Of a DNA stretch of 64,000 nt, positions 38,379-53,241 are shown piece by piece. The notes beneath the pieces were generated by a model that was given only the letters and a program-made list of their open reading frames with translations, was not told where the DNA came from and did no database searches. The translations under genes and the position numbers were made by a program. This DNA comes from a virus (taxonomy: Duplodnaviria > Heunggongvirae > Uroviricota > Caudoviricetes), in IMG/VR virus record IMGVR_UViG_2740892439_000009. The stretch is one strand, 5' to 3'. The stretch's first letter is position 1. Each line of letters begins with the position of its first letter.

Positions 38379-38452
38379 GGAAGGAGTGTACCGGTGAATT
38401 ATCTCTTCGTAGATGGCAATAGCTGGGTTATTACCACCAACAATCTGACAAA

Positions 38453-39605: not shown

Positions 39606-40679
39606 ATGGCAAAAGGAAAATCCGCACTGGCACTTGCTCTGAAAAAGAAAATCGGTAGCAACGACGAAATTCAGAAAGTAACTCATTGGATTGACACAGG
39701 CTTTCCTCCGTTAAACAAAGCTATTTCTGGTCGTTACGATGGCGGCTTCCCATGTGGTCGTATCGTCGAAGTATTCGGTCCTCCAAGCGCGGGGAAAACG
39801 TTCCTTGCAACAGCAGCGATGATCTCCGCTCAAAAACAAGATGGTCTGGCGGTATTCCTCGATCATGAAAACAGTTTTGACGTTGGCCTGGCTGTAGCCA
39901 ATGGCCTGAACGCAGATGAGGATGACGGTCAGTGGGTATACAAGCAGCCAGATACCTTCGAAGACTCTGTAGAGTTGATCGGCACAATACTTAAATTGGT
40001 TCGTGATGAAGAGCTTATCCCCGAATCAGCACCTATCTGTATCGTGGCTGACTCTCTTGCGTCTATGGTTCCGAACTCCAAAGCCGAGAAGTTCGAAAAG
40101 ATGGCTGAAGGCACTGCCAAAGACAAAGATCAGCTAAACATGAACGACAATACGGCACTGGCTCGTGCGACGAGTGCGAACTTCCCTACTCTGGCTTTGT
40201 GGGCACGCAAATACAACGCCTGCATCATCTTCTTGAATCAGGTTCGCACAAAAATCGGTGTAATGTTTGGCGACCCTACTACGTCGCCAGGTGGAGATTC
40301 ACCGAAGTTCTACGCTTCTGTACGTATCCGTCTTGGTGCATCGGTGATGAAGGATGGTAAAGAGAAGATCGGCCAGGACGTAGGCGCAGAATGCATCAAA
40401 AACAAAGTTGCACCACCGTATGGCAAATGCACCTGGAAATTCTACTTCGATCCTACTCGTGGCCTCGACGTTATCGAATCGCTCGTCGAGTACATGCTGG
40501 AAGAAGGATACCTGCCAAAGAACGCCAGCGGGCGAGTTGAAATTGGTGACAAGAAATACACAAAATCGCAGATCGTCGAGATGTATCGGGAGAAGCCACT
40601 GGCTGAAATCATTGCGGCTTTGCAGGCAATCGACGACCGAAGAGCAAAAGACAACCCCACCGAGTCAGTAGAAGAGTAA
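39606..40679 (+). CDS. RecA/UvsX-like recombinase
   Basis: Walker A GPPSAGKT, RecA-like FLNQVR loop region; AAGGAG SD. Confidence 0.85.
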   Translation: MAKGKSALALALKKKIGSNDEIQKVTHWIDTGFPPLNKAISGRYDGGFPCGRIVEVFGPPSAGKTFLATAAMISAQKQDGLAVFLDHENSFDVGLAVANGLNADEDDGQWVYKQPDTFEDSVELIGTILKLVRDEELIPESAPICIVADSLASMVPNSKAEKFEKMAEGTAKDKDQLNMNDNTALARATSANFPTLALWARKYNACIIFLNQVRTKIGVMFGDPTTSPGGDSPKFYASVRIRLGASVMKDGKEKIGQDVGAECIKNKVAPPYGKCTWKFYFDPTRGLDVIESLVEYMLEEGYLPKNASGRVEIGDKKYTKSQIVEMYREKPLAEIIAALQAIDDRRAKDNPTESVEE

Positions 40680-40684
40680 ACACA

Positions 40685-40711
40685 AGGCGTCCACATGACG
40701 CCTTTTTTATC
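40685..40711 (+). terminator. Rho-independent terminator
   Basis: AGGCGTC..GACGCCT hairpin followed by TTTTTTAT. Confidence 0.6.
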
Positions 40712-40771
40712 TCTTGAAAATACATAAGTACTTACTTATTATTTTCGCATAACAACCACATAGGAAAACAC

Positions 40772-40972
40772 ATGATCAAAATCTATCTATTGGCAGTAGC
40801 CACAGGCCTTTCAGTGGCTCTCATCTACGGTTTACTGGTTCCATCGCTGATTTCTACCAAGAGTGATTTAGCCGTCATGTTTGGAGTTGTCGTTGGTTTT
40901 GGCGCTCCAGTAATCGGTCTTATTGGTGGTCGTAAGTTTATTAACTCATTAATCAAAGCAAAGGGGAAATAA
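40772..40972 (+). CDS. Small membrane protein
   Basis: Two hydrophobic segments; conserved start context. Confidence 0.45.
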   Translation: MIKIYLLAVATGLSVALIYGLLVPSLISTKSDLAVMFGVVVGFGAPVIGLIGGRKFINSLIKAKGK

Positions 40973-40975
40973 GTA

Positions 40976-41074
40976 ATGAAGAAAGGTTTACTTGCAGTTG
41001 CTCTGGCGGCTATTTGCACAATGGGTCTTACTGGCTGTGATCGCGTGGAGCTGGATACGTTGGCATCAAAGTAA
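40976..41074 (+). CDS. Lipoprotein signal-peptide segment, probably the true N-terminus of the SPFH protein
   Basis: MKKGLLAVALAAICTMGLTGC lipobox; the SPFH frame opens immediately downstream in the -1 frame. Confidence 0.4.
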   Translation: MKKGLLAVALAAICTMGLTGCDRVELDTLASK

Positions 41075-41106
41075 ACAAATTAGGTGAAGACAAAGGGATT
41101 GGTGAA

Positions 41107-41805
41107 GTGGTTGGCGTTGGTCGCCAATGGACAGGTCTTAACACCGAACTTTACGTATTCCCAACCTTCAAACAAATGAAGACCTACGACGAGCCGTTCA
41201 CATTCCAGATGAGTGACGGTACTGCTATTGGTCACAAAATTGGCGTTGCGTATCTGGTTAATCGTGACAAGGTAACGACGGTGTTCCAGACCTATCGCAA
41301 AGGCGTAGACGATATCACCGAATCAGATCTGCGTCAGAAAATTGCCGACTCTCTAAACCGTTTGGCCAGCCGTATGACCACTGATTCATTTATCGACGGT
41401 GGTAAGGCGCAATTGCTGGACAACGCACTTAAAGATATTCAGAAAGAGATGTCTCCGGTTGGTATTGAGGTACTGAGCCTGTCATGGGTTGGAAAACCTG
41501 ATTACCCAAAAACCGTCATTGAATCTATCAACGCCAAAGTAACGGCTAACCAGCGTACTCTGCAACGTCAGCAGGAAGTTGAACAGCGTAAAGCTGAGGC
41601 GAATATGCTACGTGAACAGGCTAATGGTGAAGCTGATGCTATCCGTGCTCGTGCGCAAGCAGAAGCAGACGCCATTCGTCTGCGCGGTGAAGCTCTGCGT
41701 CAAAACCCGAACGTTATGGAGCTGGAAGCCATCAATAAATGGAATGGCCAGTTACCGCAGTACATGACTCAAGGGGCTAACACTCCTTTCATTACAGTGA
41801 AATAA
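41107..41805 (+). CDS. SPFH/band-7 (stomatin/prohibitin-like) domain protein
   Basis: In-frame upstream GYVGIKVNKLGEDKGIGEVVGVGRQW is the canonical SPFH N-terminus; coiled-coil C-terminus. Confidence 0.7.
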   Translation: MVGVGRQWTGLNTELYVFPTFKQMKTYDEPFTFQMSDGTAIGHKIGVAYLVNRDKVTTVFQTYRKGVDDITESDLRQKIADSLNRLASRMTTDSFIDGGKAQLLDNALKDIQKEMSPVGIEVLSLSWVGKPDYPKTVIESINAKVTANQRTLQRQQEVEQRKAEANMLREQANGEADAIRARAQAEADAIRLRGEALRQNPNVMELEAINKWNGQLPQYMTQGANTPFITVK

Positions 41806-41821
41806 CTCCCCTTAAAAGTTC

Positions 41822-41848
41822 AGGCGTCCAGTTGGACGCCTTTTTTAT
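41822..41848 (+). terminator. Rho-independent terminator
   Basis: AGGCGTCC..GGACGCCT hairpin followed by TTTTTTAT. Confidence 0.6.
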
Positions 41849-41896
41849 CGCAATTATCTTATTAAGAAAACAATTTGTTTAAAGGGTCAAGAAAAT

Positions 41897-42322
41897 ATGA
41901 CAGCTATTAAGAAACTCTACGATGCTGCAAACGCGGCTCTGGATGTTATTGATGATGAAGTATCAAAAGGCTTTCCTGAACCTGATTGGGCGCATCAGCT
42001 ACGAAACGCTATCGCCGAAATGAATCCACCAGATCCAACCCCCGACGAGACAGACTGGCAGCGATTCATCCGTATGTACGCTCAGGAAATAGGTCCAACG
42101 CCAACGGCAGAGCAGGCAATGCTGCTGAAATACTTCAAAGAGGCGGGAGAGGATTTACCAATTGATGACTCAGCATATTGGTTCCACTGCGCATGGCGTA
42201 AGTATGACGTGATATTCACACAAGGCATGGGAAGCAAAGATATGGTTGTGTGGCATCTACTCCATATAGACACAGCCGTTGACAGAGTTATTGAACAGTT
42301 TTTACCTAAACAAGAAGATTGA
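41897..42322 (+). CDS. Hypothetical protein
   Basis: 141-aa ORF preceded by a TTGTTTAAA motif. Confidence 0.5.
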   Translation: MTAIKKLYDAANAALDVIDDEVSKGFPEPDWAHQLRNAIAEMNPPDPTPDETDWQRFIRMYAQEIGPTPTAEQAMLLKYFKEAGEDLPIDDSAYWFHCAWRKYDVIFTQGMGSKDMVVWHLLHIDTAVDRVIEQFLPKQED

Positions 42323-42377
42323 TCGCCTATTCATAACTAACAAAATAAGTAAACACTAACCACAAAAGGAAAAACAC

Positions 42378-42653
42378 ATGAGAGTTTTAGTTCGAATCGT
42401 TACCAGCACTGTCTATGACGTGTTTCCGCTTTTTATGGTCAAAGCCGATGGCCTTAACGACGAAGAAACTGACGCGCTGATCCAGCGTATTCTCGTTGAA
42501 TATACAGGTCATGACGCTGATTCAGTGATGGTTGATGATGATGGTGTTTGTTGGCATAACGGCAACTGTTGGTACGTAGAAGAGACTCAACAAATCAGTG
42601 ATGAAGATGCCGCACATCTTGAGCGTATTTTAAGCATCAGCACTTTTGAGTGA
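42378..42653 (+). CDS. Hypothetical protein
   Basis: Conserved start context AAAGGAAAAACACATG. Confidence 0.5.
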   Translation: MRVLVRIVTSTVYDVFPLFMVKADGLNDEETDALIQRILVEYTGHDADSVMVDDDGVCWHNGNCWYVEETQQISDEDAAHLERILSISTFE

Positions 42654-42692
42654 GTTTACAGTAAAATTTATATAAGTTAGTATCTACCTATC

Positions 42693-42872
42693 ATGAAGAT
42701 TTTTATTGAATACTTGTTACTCATCGTTTCAATAGCTTTTGTCATCGACTGCATTTTCACTGGTGTCATTCGTAAAGTCTTTTCCCCGGTGAACGACGTA
42801 GTCATAAACGCTTTGGCTATCGTGCTCGTATTTAATTCAGCATTTGATGTAATCAAAGAGGTGGCAGCATGA
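42693..42872 (+). CDS. Small membrane protein
   Basis: 59-aa ORF with two hydrophobic segments. Confidence 0.35.
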   Translation: MKIFIEYLLLIVSIAFVIDCIFTGVIRKVFSPVNDVVINALAIVLVFNSAFDVIKEVAA

Positions 42873-43204
42873 AGGCCATCCCATTCGCGCTGTTGTTCCT
42901 TTCTTCGATCGTTGTGGCCGACACCACTGTTTATCAGTGTGAAATGTCTGTAGCCGACGTTAAGAATGGCGCTCTTACCGACGTCATAAAAGCACCATAT
43001 GGAGCGATGGTCGTAGACAGCGGCGACCAGTTCTATGTTGTGCGTGACGATCGAGTATTGTCATCCCCATATCTCACAAACCGTAATGGCAAATTAACCG
43101 GCGTCGGAGAAGACCACTTCGTATACAATAAATACAAGGGCTTCTATGGCGTTCACGCTTCTCAGCAAAGCTACCTTTTCGATGACTGCAAGGAGGTTGG
43201 ATAA
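42869..43204 (+). CDS. Secreted/periplasmic protein, hypothetical
   Basis: N-terminal signal peptide MKAIPFALLFLSSIVVA. Confidence 0.5.
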   Translation: MKAIPFALLFLSSIVVADTTVYQCEMSVADVKNGALTDVIKAPYGAMVVDSGDQFYVVRDDRVLSSPYLTNRNGKLTGVGEDHFVYNKYKGFYGVHASQQSYLFDDCKEVG

Positions 43205-43461
43205 TGGCATTAACACTGGCAGGTCTGGAAATCGAGAAAACAAGCGGCTACTGGCGTGCTAAGGGTTTCAAGCAGCCTGGCATTCTTGAGCGTCTGGAAC
43301 GTGAAGATGGGTATATCGTCCACCAGCGGCGTGAATGGCGTATGTACGATCCAGAAACAGGAAACTGACTACAAAAGCCGGAACACTTTGGGGTCTGTTA
43401 AAGAAAATACACTAAATGCAAACTGACTGCGGCACGTTCCGCAGTCATATTTCATAGTCGT

Positions 43462-43996
43462 CACCGCTGACAGCATACACAATCAACTACCGCTGATAGC
43501 ATATCGAGAGTCTATCTCACCGCTCACAGCATACTTTACTCGATTTTTTACCGCTGACAGCATACTTAAGACATTGCATGAATAATGTGTACCGGTATGG
43601 GTATAACCAGAACAAAATTACCGCTGGCAGCATACGAAGGTCTGACATATGCCATTAATTACCGCTGATAGCATATCCAAACAAAAATTCCTCAATAAAA
43701 CACCGCTGACAGCATACATTCTATCAGAGAGTAGCAGGCAATAAATGCCTTTCACTACAAGCAATCAGCGCAATAGCAATAGAATGTTAGTGAGCGCAAA
43801 CCTATATGGAATGCACTCTTCGAGGTTAGTAACCACTGGGGAGGTATGACAGAGCATTGAGTGGTGATAGATGATTTACCGCTCACAGCATACGTTCATC
43901 TCACTATACCGCTGGTAGCATATCTTTAACCGTTCACAGCATACTTTTCAGAAAAATAGCCGCTGATAGCATACATTTCACCGCTGACAGCATATC
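43462..43996. repeat. Iteron array downstream of repA (incA-like): about 12 copies of ACCGCTGACAGCATAC
   Basis: Direct repeats with variants (CTGATAGCATAT, CTCACAGCATAC, CTGGCAGCATAC) at irregular 20-45 bp spacing, interrupted by a 150-bp repeat-free gap. Confidence 0.85.
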
Positions 43997-45089
43997 AAAG
44001 CAGTTTGAGACTATTGGAAAGGATCTCAATCATCTTGATATTTTCAGGCGTCAAATTCTGCGAAAGTTCAGTTATCTTGTTGATAATGTTCTGTTTGGCA
44101 TCAATTTCCCCGGCTTTCTCATCTGGTTTTTTGGGTTCGATGTCTTCAGGTTTTGGCGGTGCGACTTTGAGTTTTGGATTGCGGCTGTGAATCTGGATAT
44201 AGATCGACCGCCCACGCTTAATCTCGCTGTATTCGAGATAGCCCAAATCTTGGAGAGCTTTTAAGCCGTTACGTATAGTCTGATTCTGCGAGCTGACATT
44301 CCTGCTACTCAAATTGAGTCGCGCACGCAATCGAGCAAGCGATACCGGCGCAGGCTTGGTTGGAAGACTTTCGATGAAGGTGTACAGAGCCTGTGCTGTT
44401 TCTTTGCGTGGTAGCTTATTGATAACCTTTAACTGCAAAAGAACCTTATGGTCAAAGCGATATAGTTCGGCCAGCTTCGGTTCTGCATAGAACACCACCG
44501 TATCTTTCTGCTCGTTGTAGTCCACGCTATTGATGAGGTGCACCATCAGAAGCGAGATCTTGTTAGAGCCGTCGACGTTCTTTTCTTCATACGTTCTCTG
44601 GAAAGACAGAGTTGTACGCATGATCTTCAAAAGACTGTTTGTAAGCCGGTCGCGGAGTGTTTTGCGGATCTGTGACGATGGATAGCCACAAAACTTCGCA
44701 AATTTCGTGATGCTTAACTCGACACGACCATTAGGTTCGCCGTATTCTGCCAGCGAACGCACAACGCCCACCCACGTTTTGAAATCATGATCCATGTCCA
44801 GGCGAGGACCGGTTATCTTGATATCGGAATAGCCTTCAGAACGGGCTACTTCGAGCTGGACAAGCTCCTTTGAAGCATCGATCTCATTTGGCTTGTTACG
44901 TTTACTGTATTTTGTTCCCTTAAGCGTGGGGACGAACAACCCCAGTCGCATCAACGCAATTGGTTGGACTGTATTGTTGCTATTAGGGACAAGTTCCCCT
45001 GTGTACAATTCAAGGGAACCTTCTTCAAAGTTGTCGATGTTATCTTCTACTTCTTTGTTATTTTTACCTTTTTTATTTTTTGTGGACAT
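43995..45089 (-). CDS. repA: Iteron-binding replication initiator RepA (P1/RepFIB family)
   Basis: NSNNTVQPIALMRLGLFVP, GYSDIKITGPRLDMDHDFKTW and IHSRNPKLK match the P1 RepA pattern as recalled; flanked by iterons on both sides. Start placed at the internal ATG because the longer ORF would run across the origin iterons. Confidence 0.85.
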   Translation of the reverse strand: MSTKNKKGKNNKEVEDNIDNFEEGSLELYTGELVPNSNNTVQPIALMRLGLFVPTLKGTKYSKRNKPNEIDASKELVQLEVARSEGYSDIKITGPRLDMDHDFKTWVGVVRSLAEYGEPNGRVELSITKFAKFCGYPSSQIRKTLRDRLTNSLLKIMRTTLSFQRTYEEKNVDGSNKISLLMVHLINSVDYNEQKDTVVFYAEPKLAELYRFDHKVLLQLKVINKLPRKETAQALYTFIESLPTKPAPVSLARLRARLNLSSRNVSSQNQTIRNGLKALQDLGYLEYSEIKRGRSIYIQIHSRNPKLKVAPPKPEDIEPKKPDEKAGEIDAKQNIINKITELSQNLTPENIKMIEILSNSLKLL

Positions 45090-45109
45090 GTGGACACCTT
45101 TGTCATTCA

Positions 45110-45211
45110 ACCGCTGACAGCATACTTGATTTGCCGCTGACAGAATACCAAAAACAGTTGGCAGCATACGGTGAACCGCTGACAGACTATCAATTACCGC
45201 TGACAGCATAC
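45110..45211. repeat. Origin iterons upstream of repA (incC-like): 4-5 copies of ACCGCTGACAGCATAC
   Basis: Same 16-bp repeat family as the downstream array. Confidence 0.8.
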
Positions 45212-50926: not shown

Positions 50927-52135
50927 ATGATAAGCATCGTAAAACGTAACGGCCAAACAGAGCCGTTATCCGAAGAAAAATACAACCGCGTCGTAATGTA
51001 TGGCGTAGAAGGCATTCGTGGCGTAAGCGCATCCGCTGTAGCAATGGGAGCTGTGGCCAGCATTTTTGATGGGATGACCACCAGCCAGTTGCATGAGGCT
51101 TTGGTTAAATCTGCCGCTGATTTGATCTCACCAGAAGCACCAAATTACTCACAGGTGGCTGCCCGCCTGAACATTTTTAAAATCCGCAAAGATGCCTTCG
51201 GTCGTTACGACTATCCGAACTTCTACCAACACATTGTCAAGAACGTTAACAAGGGCGTTTATGACAAGGATTTGCTGACACATTATTCATTTGAAGAGAT
51301 CGAAGAACTCGGCAATTACATTAAGCCTAAACGTGACGATCTTTTTGGCTATGCGGCTACGGTGCAATTGCAAAGCAAATACCTCGTTCAAAACCGTGTT
51401 ACTGGTGAGATTCATGAGGGGCCGCAACATATCTATATGCTGGTGGGCATGTGTCTGTTCCAGAATTGGGAAGACGACTGCGCTGGCAAAACACGTATGG
51501 AGATGGTCAAAGGTTTCTATGACGTTACAAGTACGTTCAAACTGTCTCTGCCCACACCAATCATGGCCGGCGTCCGTACTCCAACCCGTCAGTTCTCCAG
51601 TTGTGTGCTGATTGAGTCTGGCGATAGTCTGAAAGGGATTAGTGCAGCTTCAGCCGCAATTATCGACTACGTTTCACGTCGTGCTGGAATTGGTATTGGT
51701 TTTGGCCGTATCCGTGCGCTGGGCAGCGAGATCCGCAATGGTGAAGCCACCCATACCGGAGTTATTCCATTCCTGAAGCATTTCCAGACTGCTGTTAAAT
51801 CTTGCTCGCAAGGTGGTGTCCGTGGTGGCGCAGCAACAGCGTTTTACCCGATCTGGCATCTTGAAGTTGAAAGTCTGCTGGTGGTGAAAAATAACCGTGG
51901 TATCGATGAAAACCGCGTTCGCCATCTTGATTACGGCGTCATGAGTAACCGTCTGATGTACCGTCGACTCGTCAGAAGCGAGAACATCACTCTGTTCAGC
52001 CGCATGATGTGCCTGATATGTACGAAGCCTTCTTCACAGACCAGGATCTGTTTGAAAAGCTGTACCATAAATACGAAGCCGATGATTCAATTCGCAAGAA
52101 GTCAGTACCTGCCATTGAGCTGTTCTCATCTCTGA
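50927..52135 (+). CDS. nrdA: Ribonucleotide reductase class Ia alpha subunit NrdA, N-terminal segment (frame lost near 51990)
   Basis: High similarity in pattern to E. coli NrdA through ENITLFS, then nonsense. Confidence 0.85.
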   Translation: MISIVKRNGQTEPLSEEKYNRVVMYGVEGIRGVSASAVAMGAVASIFDGMTTSQLHEALVKSAADLISPEAPNYSQVAARLNIFKIRKDAFGRYDYPNFYQHIVKNVNKGVYDKDLLTHYSFEEIEELGNYIKPKRDDLFGYAATVQLQSKYLVQNRVTGEIHEGPQHIYMLVGMCLFQNWEDDCAGKTRMEMVKGFYDVTSTFKLSLPTPIMAGVRTPTRQFSSCVLIESGDSLKGISAASAAIIDYVSRRAGIGIGFGRIRALGSEIRNGEATHTGVIPFLKHFQTAVKSCSQGGVRGGAATAFYPIWHLEVESLLVVKNNRGIDENRVRHLDYGVMSNRLMYRRLVRSENITLFSRMMCLICTKPSSQTRICLKSCTINTKPMIQFARSQYLPLSCSHL

Positions 52136-53241
52136 TGCAGGAACGAGCGTCCACGGGCCGAATTTATATTGCGAACGTCGATCATATTAACGAGCATGGC
52201 GCTTTCATTCCTGCTCTTGCACCTGTTCGCCAGTCAAACCTGTGTATGGAGATCACTTTACCTACTCGTCCACTGACATTTACCGACGACCCGAACGGTG
52301 AGATCGCGCTGTGCACTTTATCCGCTTTTAACCTCGGAGCCATTCGTTCACTGGAGTCTCTTAAAGAGGTGGCATTCTATGCCGTTGCTGCACTGGATTC
52401 GTTACTGGATTATCAAGACTATCCGATGGAGGCAGCCGAAGTGCCTGCCAAAGCTCGTCGTAGCTTGGGAATTGGTGTAACCAACTTTGCTTATTACCTG
52501 GCAAAGAATGGCGTTCGTTATTCTGATACCGCTGGCAATAAACTGGTGCATGAAACGTTCGAAGCTATCCAGTATTACCTTCTTGATGCCAGCTGCCGAC
52601 TTGCTGAAGCAAAAGGTGAGTGTGACTGGTTTGAGCAGACCAAGTACGCAATTGGTCAGTTGCCGATCGACCATTACCGTTCTTCATTAGACGAAAGTGG
52701 CGAAACCAACTTTGAGTTAAAGATGCCGTGGGAAGAACTGCGTGAACGTATTGCAAAATACGGCCTTCGCAACTCCACACTGACGGCACAAATGCCATGC
52801 GAGACTTCCAGCCAGATCACTAATTCCACCAACGGCATCGAACCGCCTCGTGGCCCGGTGTCGGTGAAATCTTCTAAGGACGGCATCGTTAAGATGGTCG
52901 TGCCTGAGTTTGAAAAACTGAAGGAACAGTATGAATACCTGTGGGATATGCCGGACAACCGCGGCTATCTGACAAAGGTGGCGATCATCCAGAAGTTCTT
53001 TGACCAGGCTATTTCAGCCAATACCAACTATGACCCTTCTCGCTTTGAAGGCGATAAAGTCCCAATGATGACGCTACTGTCAGATTTGCTTCTCGCCTAC
53101 AAGATGGGAGTTAAAACGCTTTACTACCACAACACCAGAGATGGGGCAGGAAAGCGTGATGACGACGAACCGCAAAATCCACTGACGCAAGCTGTAGCCG
53201 TCGAGCCAGAAGATGAGTGCGACGGAGCCTGCAAAATCTGA
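52009..53241 (+). CDS. nrdA: NrdA C-terminal segment (-1 frame)
   Basis: Continues the E. coli NrdA pattern from DVPDMYEAFF to the C-terminal CDGACKI. Confidence 0.85.
   Translation: MPDMYEAFFTDQDLFEKLYHKYEADDSIRKKSVPAIELFSSLMQERASTGRIYIANVDHINEHGAFIPALAPVRQSNLCMEITLPTRPLTFTDDPNGEIALCTLSAFNLGAIRSLESLKEVAFYAVAALDSLLDYQDYPMEAAEVPAKARRSLGIGVTNFAYYLAKNGVRYSDTAGNKLVHETFEAIQYYLLDASCRLAEAKGECDWFEQTKYAIGQLPIDHYRSSLDESGETNFELKMPWEELRERIAKYGLRNSTLTAQMPCETSSQITNSTNGIEPPRGPVSVKSSKDGIVKMVVPEFEKLKEQYEYLWDMPDNRGYLTKVAIIQKFFDQAISANTNYDPSRFEGDKVPMMTLLSDLLLAYKMGVKTLYYHNTRDGAGKRDDDEPQNPLTQAVAVEPEDECDGACKI

Follow-up and report, generated by a model that had tools for sequence, protein, structure and literature searches.

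The locus described here lies at positions 40976 to 41805 of a 64,000-nucleotide (nt) stretch of tailed-phage DNA (IMG/VR record IMGVR_UViG_2740892439_000009), referred to below as the window. A first-pass annotation, made from the sequence alone, had placed there a lipoprotein-anchored protein with an SPFH (band-7) domain, interrupted by a 1-nt frame break and possibly active in membrane remodelling or superinfection exclusion. In the sequence and in the list of open reading frames (ORFs), the gene begins with a plus-strand ORF at 40976..41074 that reads MKKGLLAVALAAICTMGLTGC, followed by DRVELDTLASK and a stop codon. This is a typical lipoprotein signal peptide: a basic n-region is followed by a hydrophobic core of 13 residues and by the lipobox LTGC that had been noted, which fits the pattern [LVI][ASTVI][GAS]C. 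From 41041 another frame stays open, ending at the TAA at 41803-41805; its start in the ORF list is the GTG at 41107, which gives a product of 232 amino acids (aa). At 41051 the window has a single C (GAG-CTGG), where two relatives, otherwise aligned, have CC (GAGCCTGG). With this base restored the two parts form one continuous SPFH ORF of 276 codons, in agreement with the reported 1-nt break. From G27 onward the SPFH translation is that of an intact relative (L001) and of the family representative P0001. All feature coordinates are collected in Table 1.

The gene is already known: it is the annotated SPFH lipoprotein gene of SSU5-like E. coli phage-plasmids. The window is itself such a phage-plasmid. 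Over a 1.2-kb region it shares 94-98% identity with the phages Cyrano, PhiR41_1 and CMS-2020a, and up to 99.8% with non-mobilizable E. coli plasmids of ~110 kb. In these relatives the gene is intact (831 nt) and bears the annotation of an SPFH domain-containing or stomatin-like protein. In sequence, the repaired product is WP_000715581.1 (276 aa; RefSeq "SPFH domain-containing protein"), the sole difference in the window being the lost base at 41051. At the DNA level the Cyrano locus shares 94% identity with the window, along with the neighbouring genes and the 66-aa gene upstream.

Family membership was assessed with Pfam, PHROGs and NCBIfam equivalog models. The repaired protein matched Band_7 (PF01145) with 106.2 bits (2.6e-30) and the 232-aa ORF of the window with 91.6 bits (7.8e-26), at a gathering cut-off of 23.6 bits; the SPFH domain that had been proposed is thus confirmed. 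In PHROGs the repaired protein was assigned to phrog_200 'lipoprotein' (3e-108). Membership of HflK/HflC was rejected on the scores for TIGR01933, TIGR01932 and NF008259 (18.7, 30.2 and 16.8 bits versus cut-offs of 159.4, 134.4 and 427), and flotillin (FloT/YqiK type) was rejected on those for Pfam Flot PF15975 (19.9 versus 27 bits) and the FloT equivalog (16 versus 700). The labels 'serine protease', 'peptidyl-tRNA hydrolase', 'putative transposase' and 'RIIB lysis inhibitor' found on homologues gained no support from the domain searches made here and were treated as annotation noise.

A single-chain AlphaFold2 model was computed from an alignment of 41 sequences (mean predicted local distance difference test score, pLDDT, of 89). 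It comprises an N-terminal helix (2-18), a beta-rich lobe (21-95), an alpha/beta lobe (97-176), an uninterrupted 65-residue helix (179-243), a short helix (245-255) and a disordered tail; the C-terminus, described earlier as coiled coil, is accordingly helical in the model. By sequence, the only solved relative in the Protein Data Bank (PDB) was HflK (E 0.007). Foldseek against the PDB returned on top full-length cage subunits of prohibitin, HflK/HflC, erlin, stomatin, flotillin and QmcA (E 4e-14 to 1e-7; 4e-14 to 2e-8 for the first five groups), and against viral models it returned Band 7 proteins of phages and giant viruses. Lipobox, Band_7, phrog_200 and the model with its Foldseek matches concur on a lipoprotein-anchored SPFH protein.

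Three groups of known cage proteins were compared with the phage protein. E. coli HflK/HflC, which form the cage enclosing FtsH, have the same SPFH1/SPFH2 lobes, long wall helix and C-terminal cap segment, and, as predicted for the phage protein, most of each chain lies at the inner membrane on its periplasmic side; chains 7vhq, 7wi3 and 9cz2 were among the best Foldseek matches. They differ in having an N-terminal transmembrane (TM) helix instead of a lipid anchor and in forming a hetero-pair, whereas a single SPFH gene is present here. The best full-length matches overall were prohibitin, erlin and stomatin cages (8rrh, 9o9z, 9vvj, 9z7u), and some phage homologues bear the name 'prohibitin family protein'; these cages are eukaryotic, have TM or hairpin anchors and share 14-19% identity with the phage protein. 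QmcA-YbbJ and other SPFH-NfeD operons also combine an SPFH gene with a gene for a small membrane protein, and QmcA (8z5g) is a structural match. In these operons gene order and membrane orientation differ, QmcA being cytoplasm-facing, and the 66-aa partner described below has no NfeD or OB-fold domain; an NfeD partner was therefore rejected.

The deletion at 41051 is private to the window. An extra C is present in 26 of 28 related loci and an extra T in one, and one locus was unalignable; none of the 27 alignable loci has the deletion. All 40 listed matches in complete E. coli genomes are 352 nt long versus 351 nt for the window query. Compared with its closest relative, CP056250, the window has clean 1-nt deletions in homopolymers of 2-4 nt (at 38422, 41051, 43361, 52001 and 61058). 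Two of them lie in CCTGG Dcm sites, which is above expectation (P ~0.02 conditioned on C/G runs, 0.001 by position), and indels at Dcm sites are a pattern familiar from nanopore base-calling. Four genes are broken, each solely through the loss of one base in a homopolymer, whereas the rest of the genome matches intact relatives at ~99% identity; the likeliest cause of the frame break is therefore an error of sequencing or assembly, and we hold this with good confidence. The break is probably a feature of the window sequence and not of the SPFH gene.

Read at face value, the deletion would instead be a genuine lesion in a decaying phage-plasmid. The pseudogene would then yield a 12-residue lipopeptide and perhaps a cytoplasmic SPFH fragment. 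The deletion does stand in the sequence as given, the breaks in nrdA, the exonuclease gene and the Cra-like ORF would suit a defective element, and lesions occur in other relatives as well (a recA frameshift in NZ_CP083480, a deletion chimera in P0018). However, every lesion of the window is a 1-nt loss in a 2-4-nt homopolymer, two of them in Dcm sites; these genes contain no nonsense substitutions, larger deletions or insertion sequences, no lesion is common to any relative, and the remaining SPFH coding sequence specifies the same protein as the intact relative. A pseudogene is therefore considered unlikely. The ORFs overlap, and a programmed ribosomal -1 shift near 41047-41051 would also unite them. 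This explanation was rejected as having next to no chance of being right: every relative examined uses one continuous frame, and there is no slippery heptamer at GTGGAGCTGG. With error as the preferred cause, the value of the window lies mainly in quality control. The breaks in SPFH, nrdA, the exonuclease gene and the Cra-like ORF point to indel errors, and other apparent pseudogenes or frameshifts in the window should be read with such errors in mind.

Directly upstream of the SPFH gene lies the gene for a 66-aa small membrane protein with two hydrophobic helices (2-TM partner), which the first-pass annotation had passed over. The partner stop codon is 3 nt ahead of the SPFH start codon, and from this spacing the SPFH gene is predicted to be translationally coupled to the partner gene. 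The partner has no Pfam or NCBIfam match; its PHROG, phrog_1130 'membrane protein', is filed under 'moron, auxiliary metabolic gene and host takeover'. A homologue of the partner was found directly upstream of the SPFH gene in phiP27, in a Shigella lambdoid prophage and in another prophage (51% identity), as well as in the virulent N4-type phage VEc25, the jumbo phage Munch and the P2-like phage P88. In the rV5-like phage Seu621 it lies one gene further upstream. In a motif search over the 80 best IMG/VR loci the partner turned up in 62, at -4 to +3 nt from the SPFH start; of the remaining 18 loci seven were inspected, six of which have a 2-TM ORF with a variant motif, while one locus ends early. 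The pair of PHROG 1130 and PHROG 200 is thus kept across unrelated temperate and virulent phages.

Outside the SSU5-like group, the 'lipoprotein' L05 of phiP27 (NP_543057), the 'serine protease' of Stx2 phages and the lipoprotein of P88 share 77-79% protein identity with the window protein, combine PHROG 200 with PHROG 1130, and have a lipobox followed by CDRVEPG and an upstream 2-TM ORF overlapping the start codon; in phiP27 this ORF is unannotated and overlaps in ATGA. They differ in belonging to lambdoid or P2-like prophages. The module follows recombination genes in the window and in two prophages, lies toward xis/int in lambdoid prophages, occupies the interval between cox and gene A in P88, and comes after RNAP2 in the N4 type.

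These positions bear on a possible part in lysis timing, with the 2-TM partner as a holin- or antiholin-like protein whose oligomerisation an SPFH cage would hold back. The partner resembles a class II holin in its generic layout (~65 aa, two TM helices, basic tail at the C-terminus), and one homologue is labelled 'RIIB lysis inhibitor' in a Klebsiella phage record. That layout is very unspecific, though, and the label is without support. The module is never in a lysis cassette but in early or recombination regions, and the holin, endolysin and Rz/Rz1 genes of Cyrano lie elsewhere. A function in lysis timing is accordingly rated as very improbable.

The first-pass annotation had held that SPFH proteins are not standard phage equipment, which proved to be overstated. 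In a library of 1.84 billion proteins the SPFH family comprised 2,816 clusters at E<=1e-3 and 192 at E<=1e-30. A search with an alignment of eight sequences retrieved at least 502 IMG/VR contigs with a relative. Of 50,697 phage records, 418 contain a relative, virulent phages among them; the carriers include N4-like, rV5-like, jumbo, Pseudomonas, Caulobacter, crAss-like and Lak phages. The gene belongs to the large phage family PHROG 200. The plasmid allele occurs in ~195 of 5,426 complete E. coli genomes, which also hold ~90 chromosomal (prophage) copies, and the gene is annotated in hundreds of SSU5-like plasmids. Given the family size and the counts in IMG/VR, phage records and E. coli genomes, SPFH lipoproteins are a common phage accessory and no oddity.

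Superinfection exclusion, in which the periplasmic SPFH lipoprotein and its 2-TM partner would block adsorption or DNA entry, was weighed against this distribution. The pair encodes an envelope accessory protein in early or accessory regions, the usual place of exclusion genes, and occurs in both temperate and virulent phages, with Imm and Sp of T4 as a parallel. The filing of the partner PHROG under morons and host takeover also fits. In N4-type VEc25 and in Vi01-like PhiSH19 the module adjoins a gene annotated 'superinfection exclusion'; the VEc25 neighbour, however, is Pfam GP17, a family that in P22 helps the phage to escape exclusion, so that the association is weak. Searches of Pfam, PHROGs and PADLOC revealed no likeness to a known exclusion or defence family: Pfam and PHROGs returned only Band_7, 'lipoprotein' and 'membrane protein' for the pair, and PADLOC gave no defence match for the SPFH protein, the partner or five neighbours. 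An anti-phage defence system was rejected on the PADLOC result. The module is moreover found in sipho-, myo- and podoviruses of many hosts with differing receptors and entry routes, which argues for a general target and not for a specific injection block, and a cage over small membrane patches would be an odd way to block entry. Exclusion thus appears unlikely as the function of the module; neither it nor membrane remodelling, the two suggestions of the first-pass annotation, is backed or contradicted by the evidence.

The anchor of the SPFH protein was followed through the family. The lipobox Cys is invariant in the alignments A2 and A4. Among 137 full-length representatives at 50% identity, a Cys lies at most 14 residues upstream of the SPFH start in 118 and a lipobox-like site is present in 100; in about 10% the anchor is a plain N-terminal TM segment. 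Of the representatives listed, at least 13 to 19 are natural fusions of the type 2TM-linker-TM3-lipobox-SPFH with an N-terminal extension of 60-100 residues. In these proteins (P0021, P0125, P0136 and others in A4) the 2-TM partner is joined in frame through a linker and a third hydrophobic helix, and the lipobox Cys is still invariant. An AlphaFold model of P0021 has three N-terminal helices ahead of the SPFH body. The arrangement suggests that signal peptidase II processes the fusions internally or that translation starts internally. For TM-anchored and fused variants the inner membrane, with a non-cytoplasmic SPFH body, is the only possible site, and the lipoprotein form is therefore predicted to lie at the inner membrane and to face outward as well. 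The mature N-terminus is CDRVEPG in all 80 of the best viral loci (enterobacterial group), with Asp at +2, which in E. coli is an inner-membrane retention signal; residue +3, beside it, is Arg. One common Enterobacteriaceae allele (P0005, a homologue in 175 contigs) has Tyr in place of the lipobox Cys (MGIIGYDRVEPG); by its sequence it would not be lipidatable and would be a signal-anchored or secreted variant.

Expression of the Cyrano copies was taken from published transcriptomes of LF82, an E. coli pathobiont, in lysogeny broth (LB) and after 6 h inside macrophages (S1 Table; values as log2(FPKM+5), FPKM being fragments per kilobase per million; PMC9928086). The 2-TM partner CYRAN_56 rose from 2.3/2.3 in LB to 7.6/7.7 in macrophages, and the SPFH gene CYRAN_57 from 4.3/3.0 to 7.25/7.4 (PMC9928086). 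For the flanking genes, the values in LB and in macrophages were 3.6/3.1 and ~4.1 (recA), 3.0/2.3 and 2.4-2.9 (exonuclease), and 2.7/2.3 and ~4 (CYRAN_58) (PMC9928086). Because the pair rises in macrophages while the flanking genes stay low, the Cyrano pair is a separate, conditionally expressed unit. CYRAN_60-62, the homologues of window positions 42693..43368, rise more than the SPFH pair in macrophages (~2.3-3.8 to 8.3-9.0); their counterparts in the window are a 59-aa hydrophobic ORF, a 111-aa ORF with a signal-peptide-like start and the Cra-like ORF. The promoter-like site upstream of the pair in the window is a consensus match and nothing more. It scores highest in the region, where such sites are no more numerous than in shuffled sequences, and it is indirectly backed by the independent expression of the Cyrano homologues.

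Induction inside macrophages would also suit a lysogenic-conversion or virulence lipoprotein, located in the outer membrane and vesicles and acting on the cell surface or the animal host. The precedent is PM0222 of Pasteurella multocida (OAZ06802.1), a prophage HflK/C-like SPFH protein found in outer-membrane vesicles (OMVs) that activates TLR1/2; its deletion attenuates virulence and alters capsule, adhesion and biofilm (PMC9872710). Like the window protein it is prophage-borne, of about 25-35 kDa and associated with the envelope or OMVs, and it is the only experimentally studied prophage SPFH protein that was found. The promoter-like site and terminators of the pair form a classic moron layout, and Arg+3 may permit export by the Lol system. 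The likeness of PM0222 to the phage SPFH family, however, is drawn from its published description, and its reported virulence role cannot explain copies in virulent phages. The module occurs in strictly virulent phages (N4-type, rV5-like, jumbo and phiCbK-like), where a role in host virulence would make no sense, and the partner is a predicted integral inner-membrane protein to which the natural fusions bind the SPFH part. A virulence lipoprotein is hence judged quite unlikely. Because the module is present in virulent phages, a role in the infection cycle is preferred over a purely host-directed virulence role.

The best explanation overall, to which we assign a probability of roughly 0.55, is a standard SSU5-like two-gene accessory module in which the break is an error and the product forms an SPFH ring or cage at the inner membrane that faces the periplasm. 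The precursor would be exported, lipidated at Cys21 and cleaved, and the SPFH body would stay next to the 2-TM partner at the inner membrane, on its periplasmic face. By oligomerising through the long helix and the C-terminal tail, it would build a ring or cage enclosing a patch of membrane, as do HflK/C, prohibitin and stomatin. Export with lipidation, retention and cage assembly are inferred from the modelled fold and the anchor variants. As to purpose, our guess is that the cage would control a host inner-membrane component, or membrane integrity, during infection or envelope stress; an FtsH-type protease is a guess at that component, by analogy to the family precedent of HflK/C with FtsH.

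Several points weigh against this explanation. A literature search found no experiment on localisation, oligomerisation or function of the phage SPFH family; only Pfam listings and the PM0222 study were retrieved. The scores far below the HflK/HflC equivalog cut-offs make the FtsH link one of analogy only. PM0222, the studied prophage protein, was located in OMVs (PMC9872710). A strong Lol-avoidance signal has been described without adjacent basic residues, and a basic neighbour weakens the signal (PMC6469965); Arg+3 thus makes Asp+2 non-canonical and may lead to outer-membrane sorting in E. coli. In LB the Cyrano pair is at background, the moron list of the authors does not include it, and some Cyrano structural genes are also up at 6 h in macrophages (PMC9928086). 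Finally, the error call was made by comparison with relatives, and the gene could be a true pseudogene.

A bolder form of the same explanation would see in the pair a widespread phage membrane organelle, employed by temperate and virulent phages alike. The lipid-anchored periplasmic SPFH cage would surround its own 2-TM subunit and capture or shield a host machine (FtsH/HflKC, or a DNA-entry or stress-sensing component), and the fusions would be cleaved internally by signal peptidase II. This form is speculative and is given rather low odds. If true, it would be the first case of a virus putting the SPFH cage principle to use on a defined target. The target of the module would reveal what phages use SPFH cages for, a modest and not a major advance; the window itself adds nothing specific on the function of this widespread module.

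Table 1. Features of the SPFH locus and of the other sites of 1-nt deletion in the window.
Feature	Position	Strand	Basis or detail
Terminator-like hairpin and T-run, closing the upstream recA unit	40684..40704	+	8-bp stem, 5 G-C pairs, tail TTTTATCTCT
Sigma-70-type promoter-like site, TTGAAA-17 nt-TATTAT, 30 nt 5' of the 2-TM gene	40714..40742	+	10/12 matches
66-aa small membrane protein (phrog_1130, 1.7e-24): two hydrophobic helices, loop motif IYGLLVPSLISTKSD, basic C-terminal tail	40772..40972	+	
SPFH gene, 5' part in the correct frame: signal peptide, LTGC (Cys21), D22-R-V-E25	40976..41050	+	sequence, alignment
Frame-break site, C versus CC of GAGCCTGG, in a Dcm CCTGG site	41051	+	alignment with relatives
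SPFH gene, remainder in the shifted frame: G27-K276, then TAA; SPFH1/SPFH2, long helix, tail KWNGQLP...PF	41053..41805	+	translation, Pfam, model
Terminator-like hairpin and TTTTTT, closing the two-gene unit	41822..41841	+	8-bp stem, 6 G-C pairs
5'-3' exonuclease gene, broken near its start at 38422 (CC, CCTGG site)	38343..39337		extra C in 15/15 alignable relatives
Cra-like small ORF, shortened at 43361 (AAAA to AAA)	43204..43368		extra A in 16/16 alignable relatives
nrdA (ribonucleotide reductase alpha), split at 52001 (CCC to CC) into overlapping 50927..52135 and 52009..53241	50927..53241		
1-nt deletion (CC), intergenic	61058		versus CP056250

Around the module, the first-pass annotation had described a setting of small membrane and secreted proteins (40772-43204). 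This was borne out for 40772..40972, 42693..42872 and 42869..43204, which look membrane-bound or secreted; 41897..42322 (DUF7238) and 42378..42653 are without such features. A variant of the neighbourhood is seen in P0018, from another isolate, where a deletion has produced a 303-aa chimera of SPFH residues 1-226 and the C-terminal part of the neighbouring DUF7238 protein. On the upstream side, RecA of the window (39606..40679) is 357 aa long and intein-free. RecA of Cyrano and CP056250 has 779 aa, with a 421-aa insertion in the P-loop that matches Pfam Intein_splicing and LAGLIDADG_3 (L004 17641..19980). In NZ_CP083480 a 4-nt deletion at the point of this insertion (window ~39797) frameshifts recA. 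Downstream, at ~43500..44100 and upstream of repA (43995..45209, minus strand), several short ORFs give the same 'MLSAV...' peptides and mark repeated DNA; the repeats are probably iterons of a RepA/RepB-type replicon.

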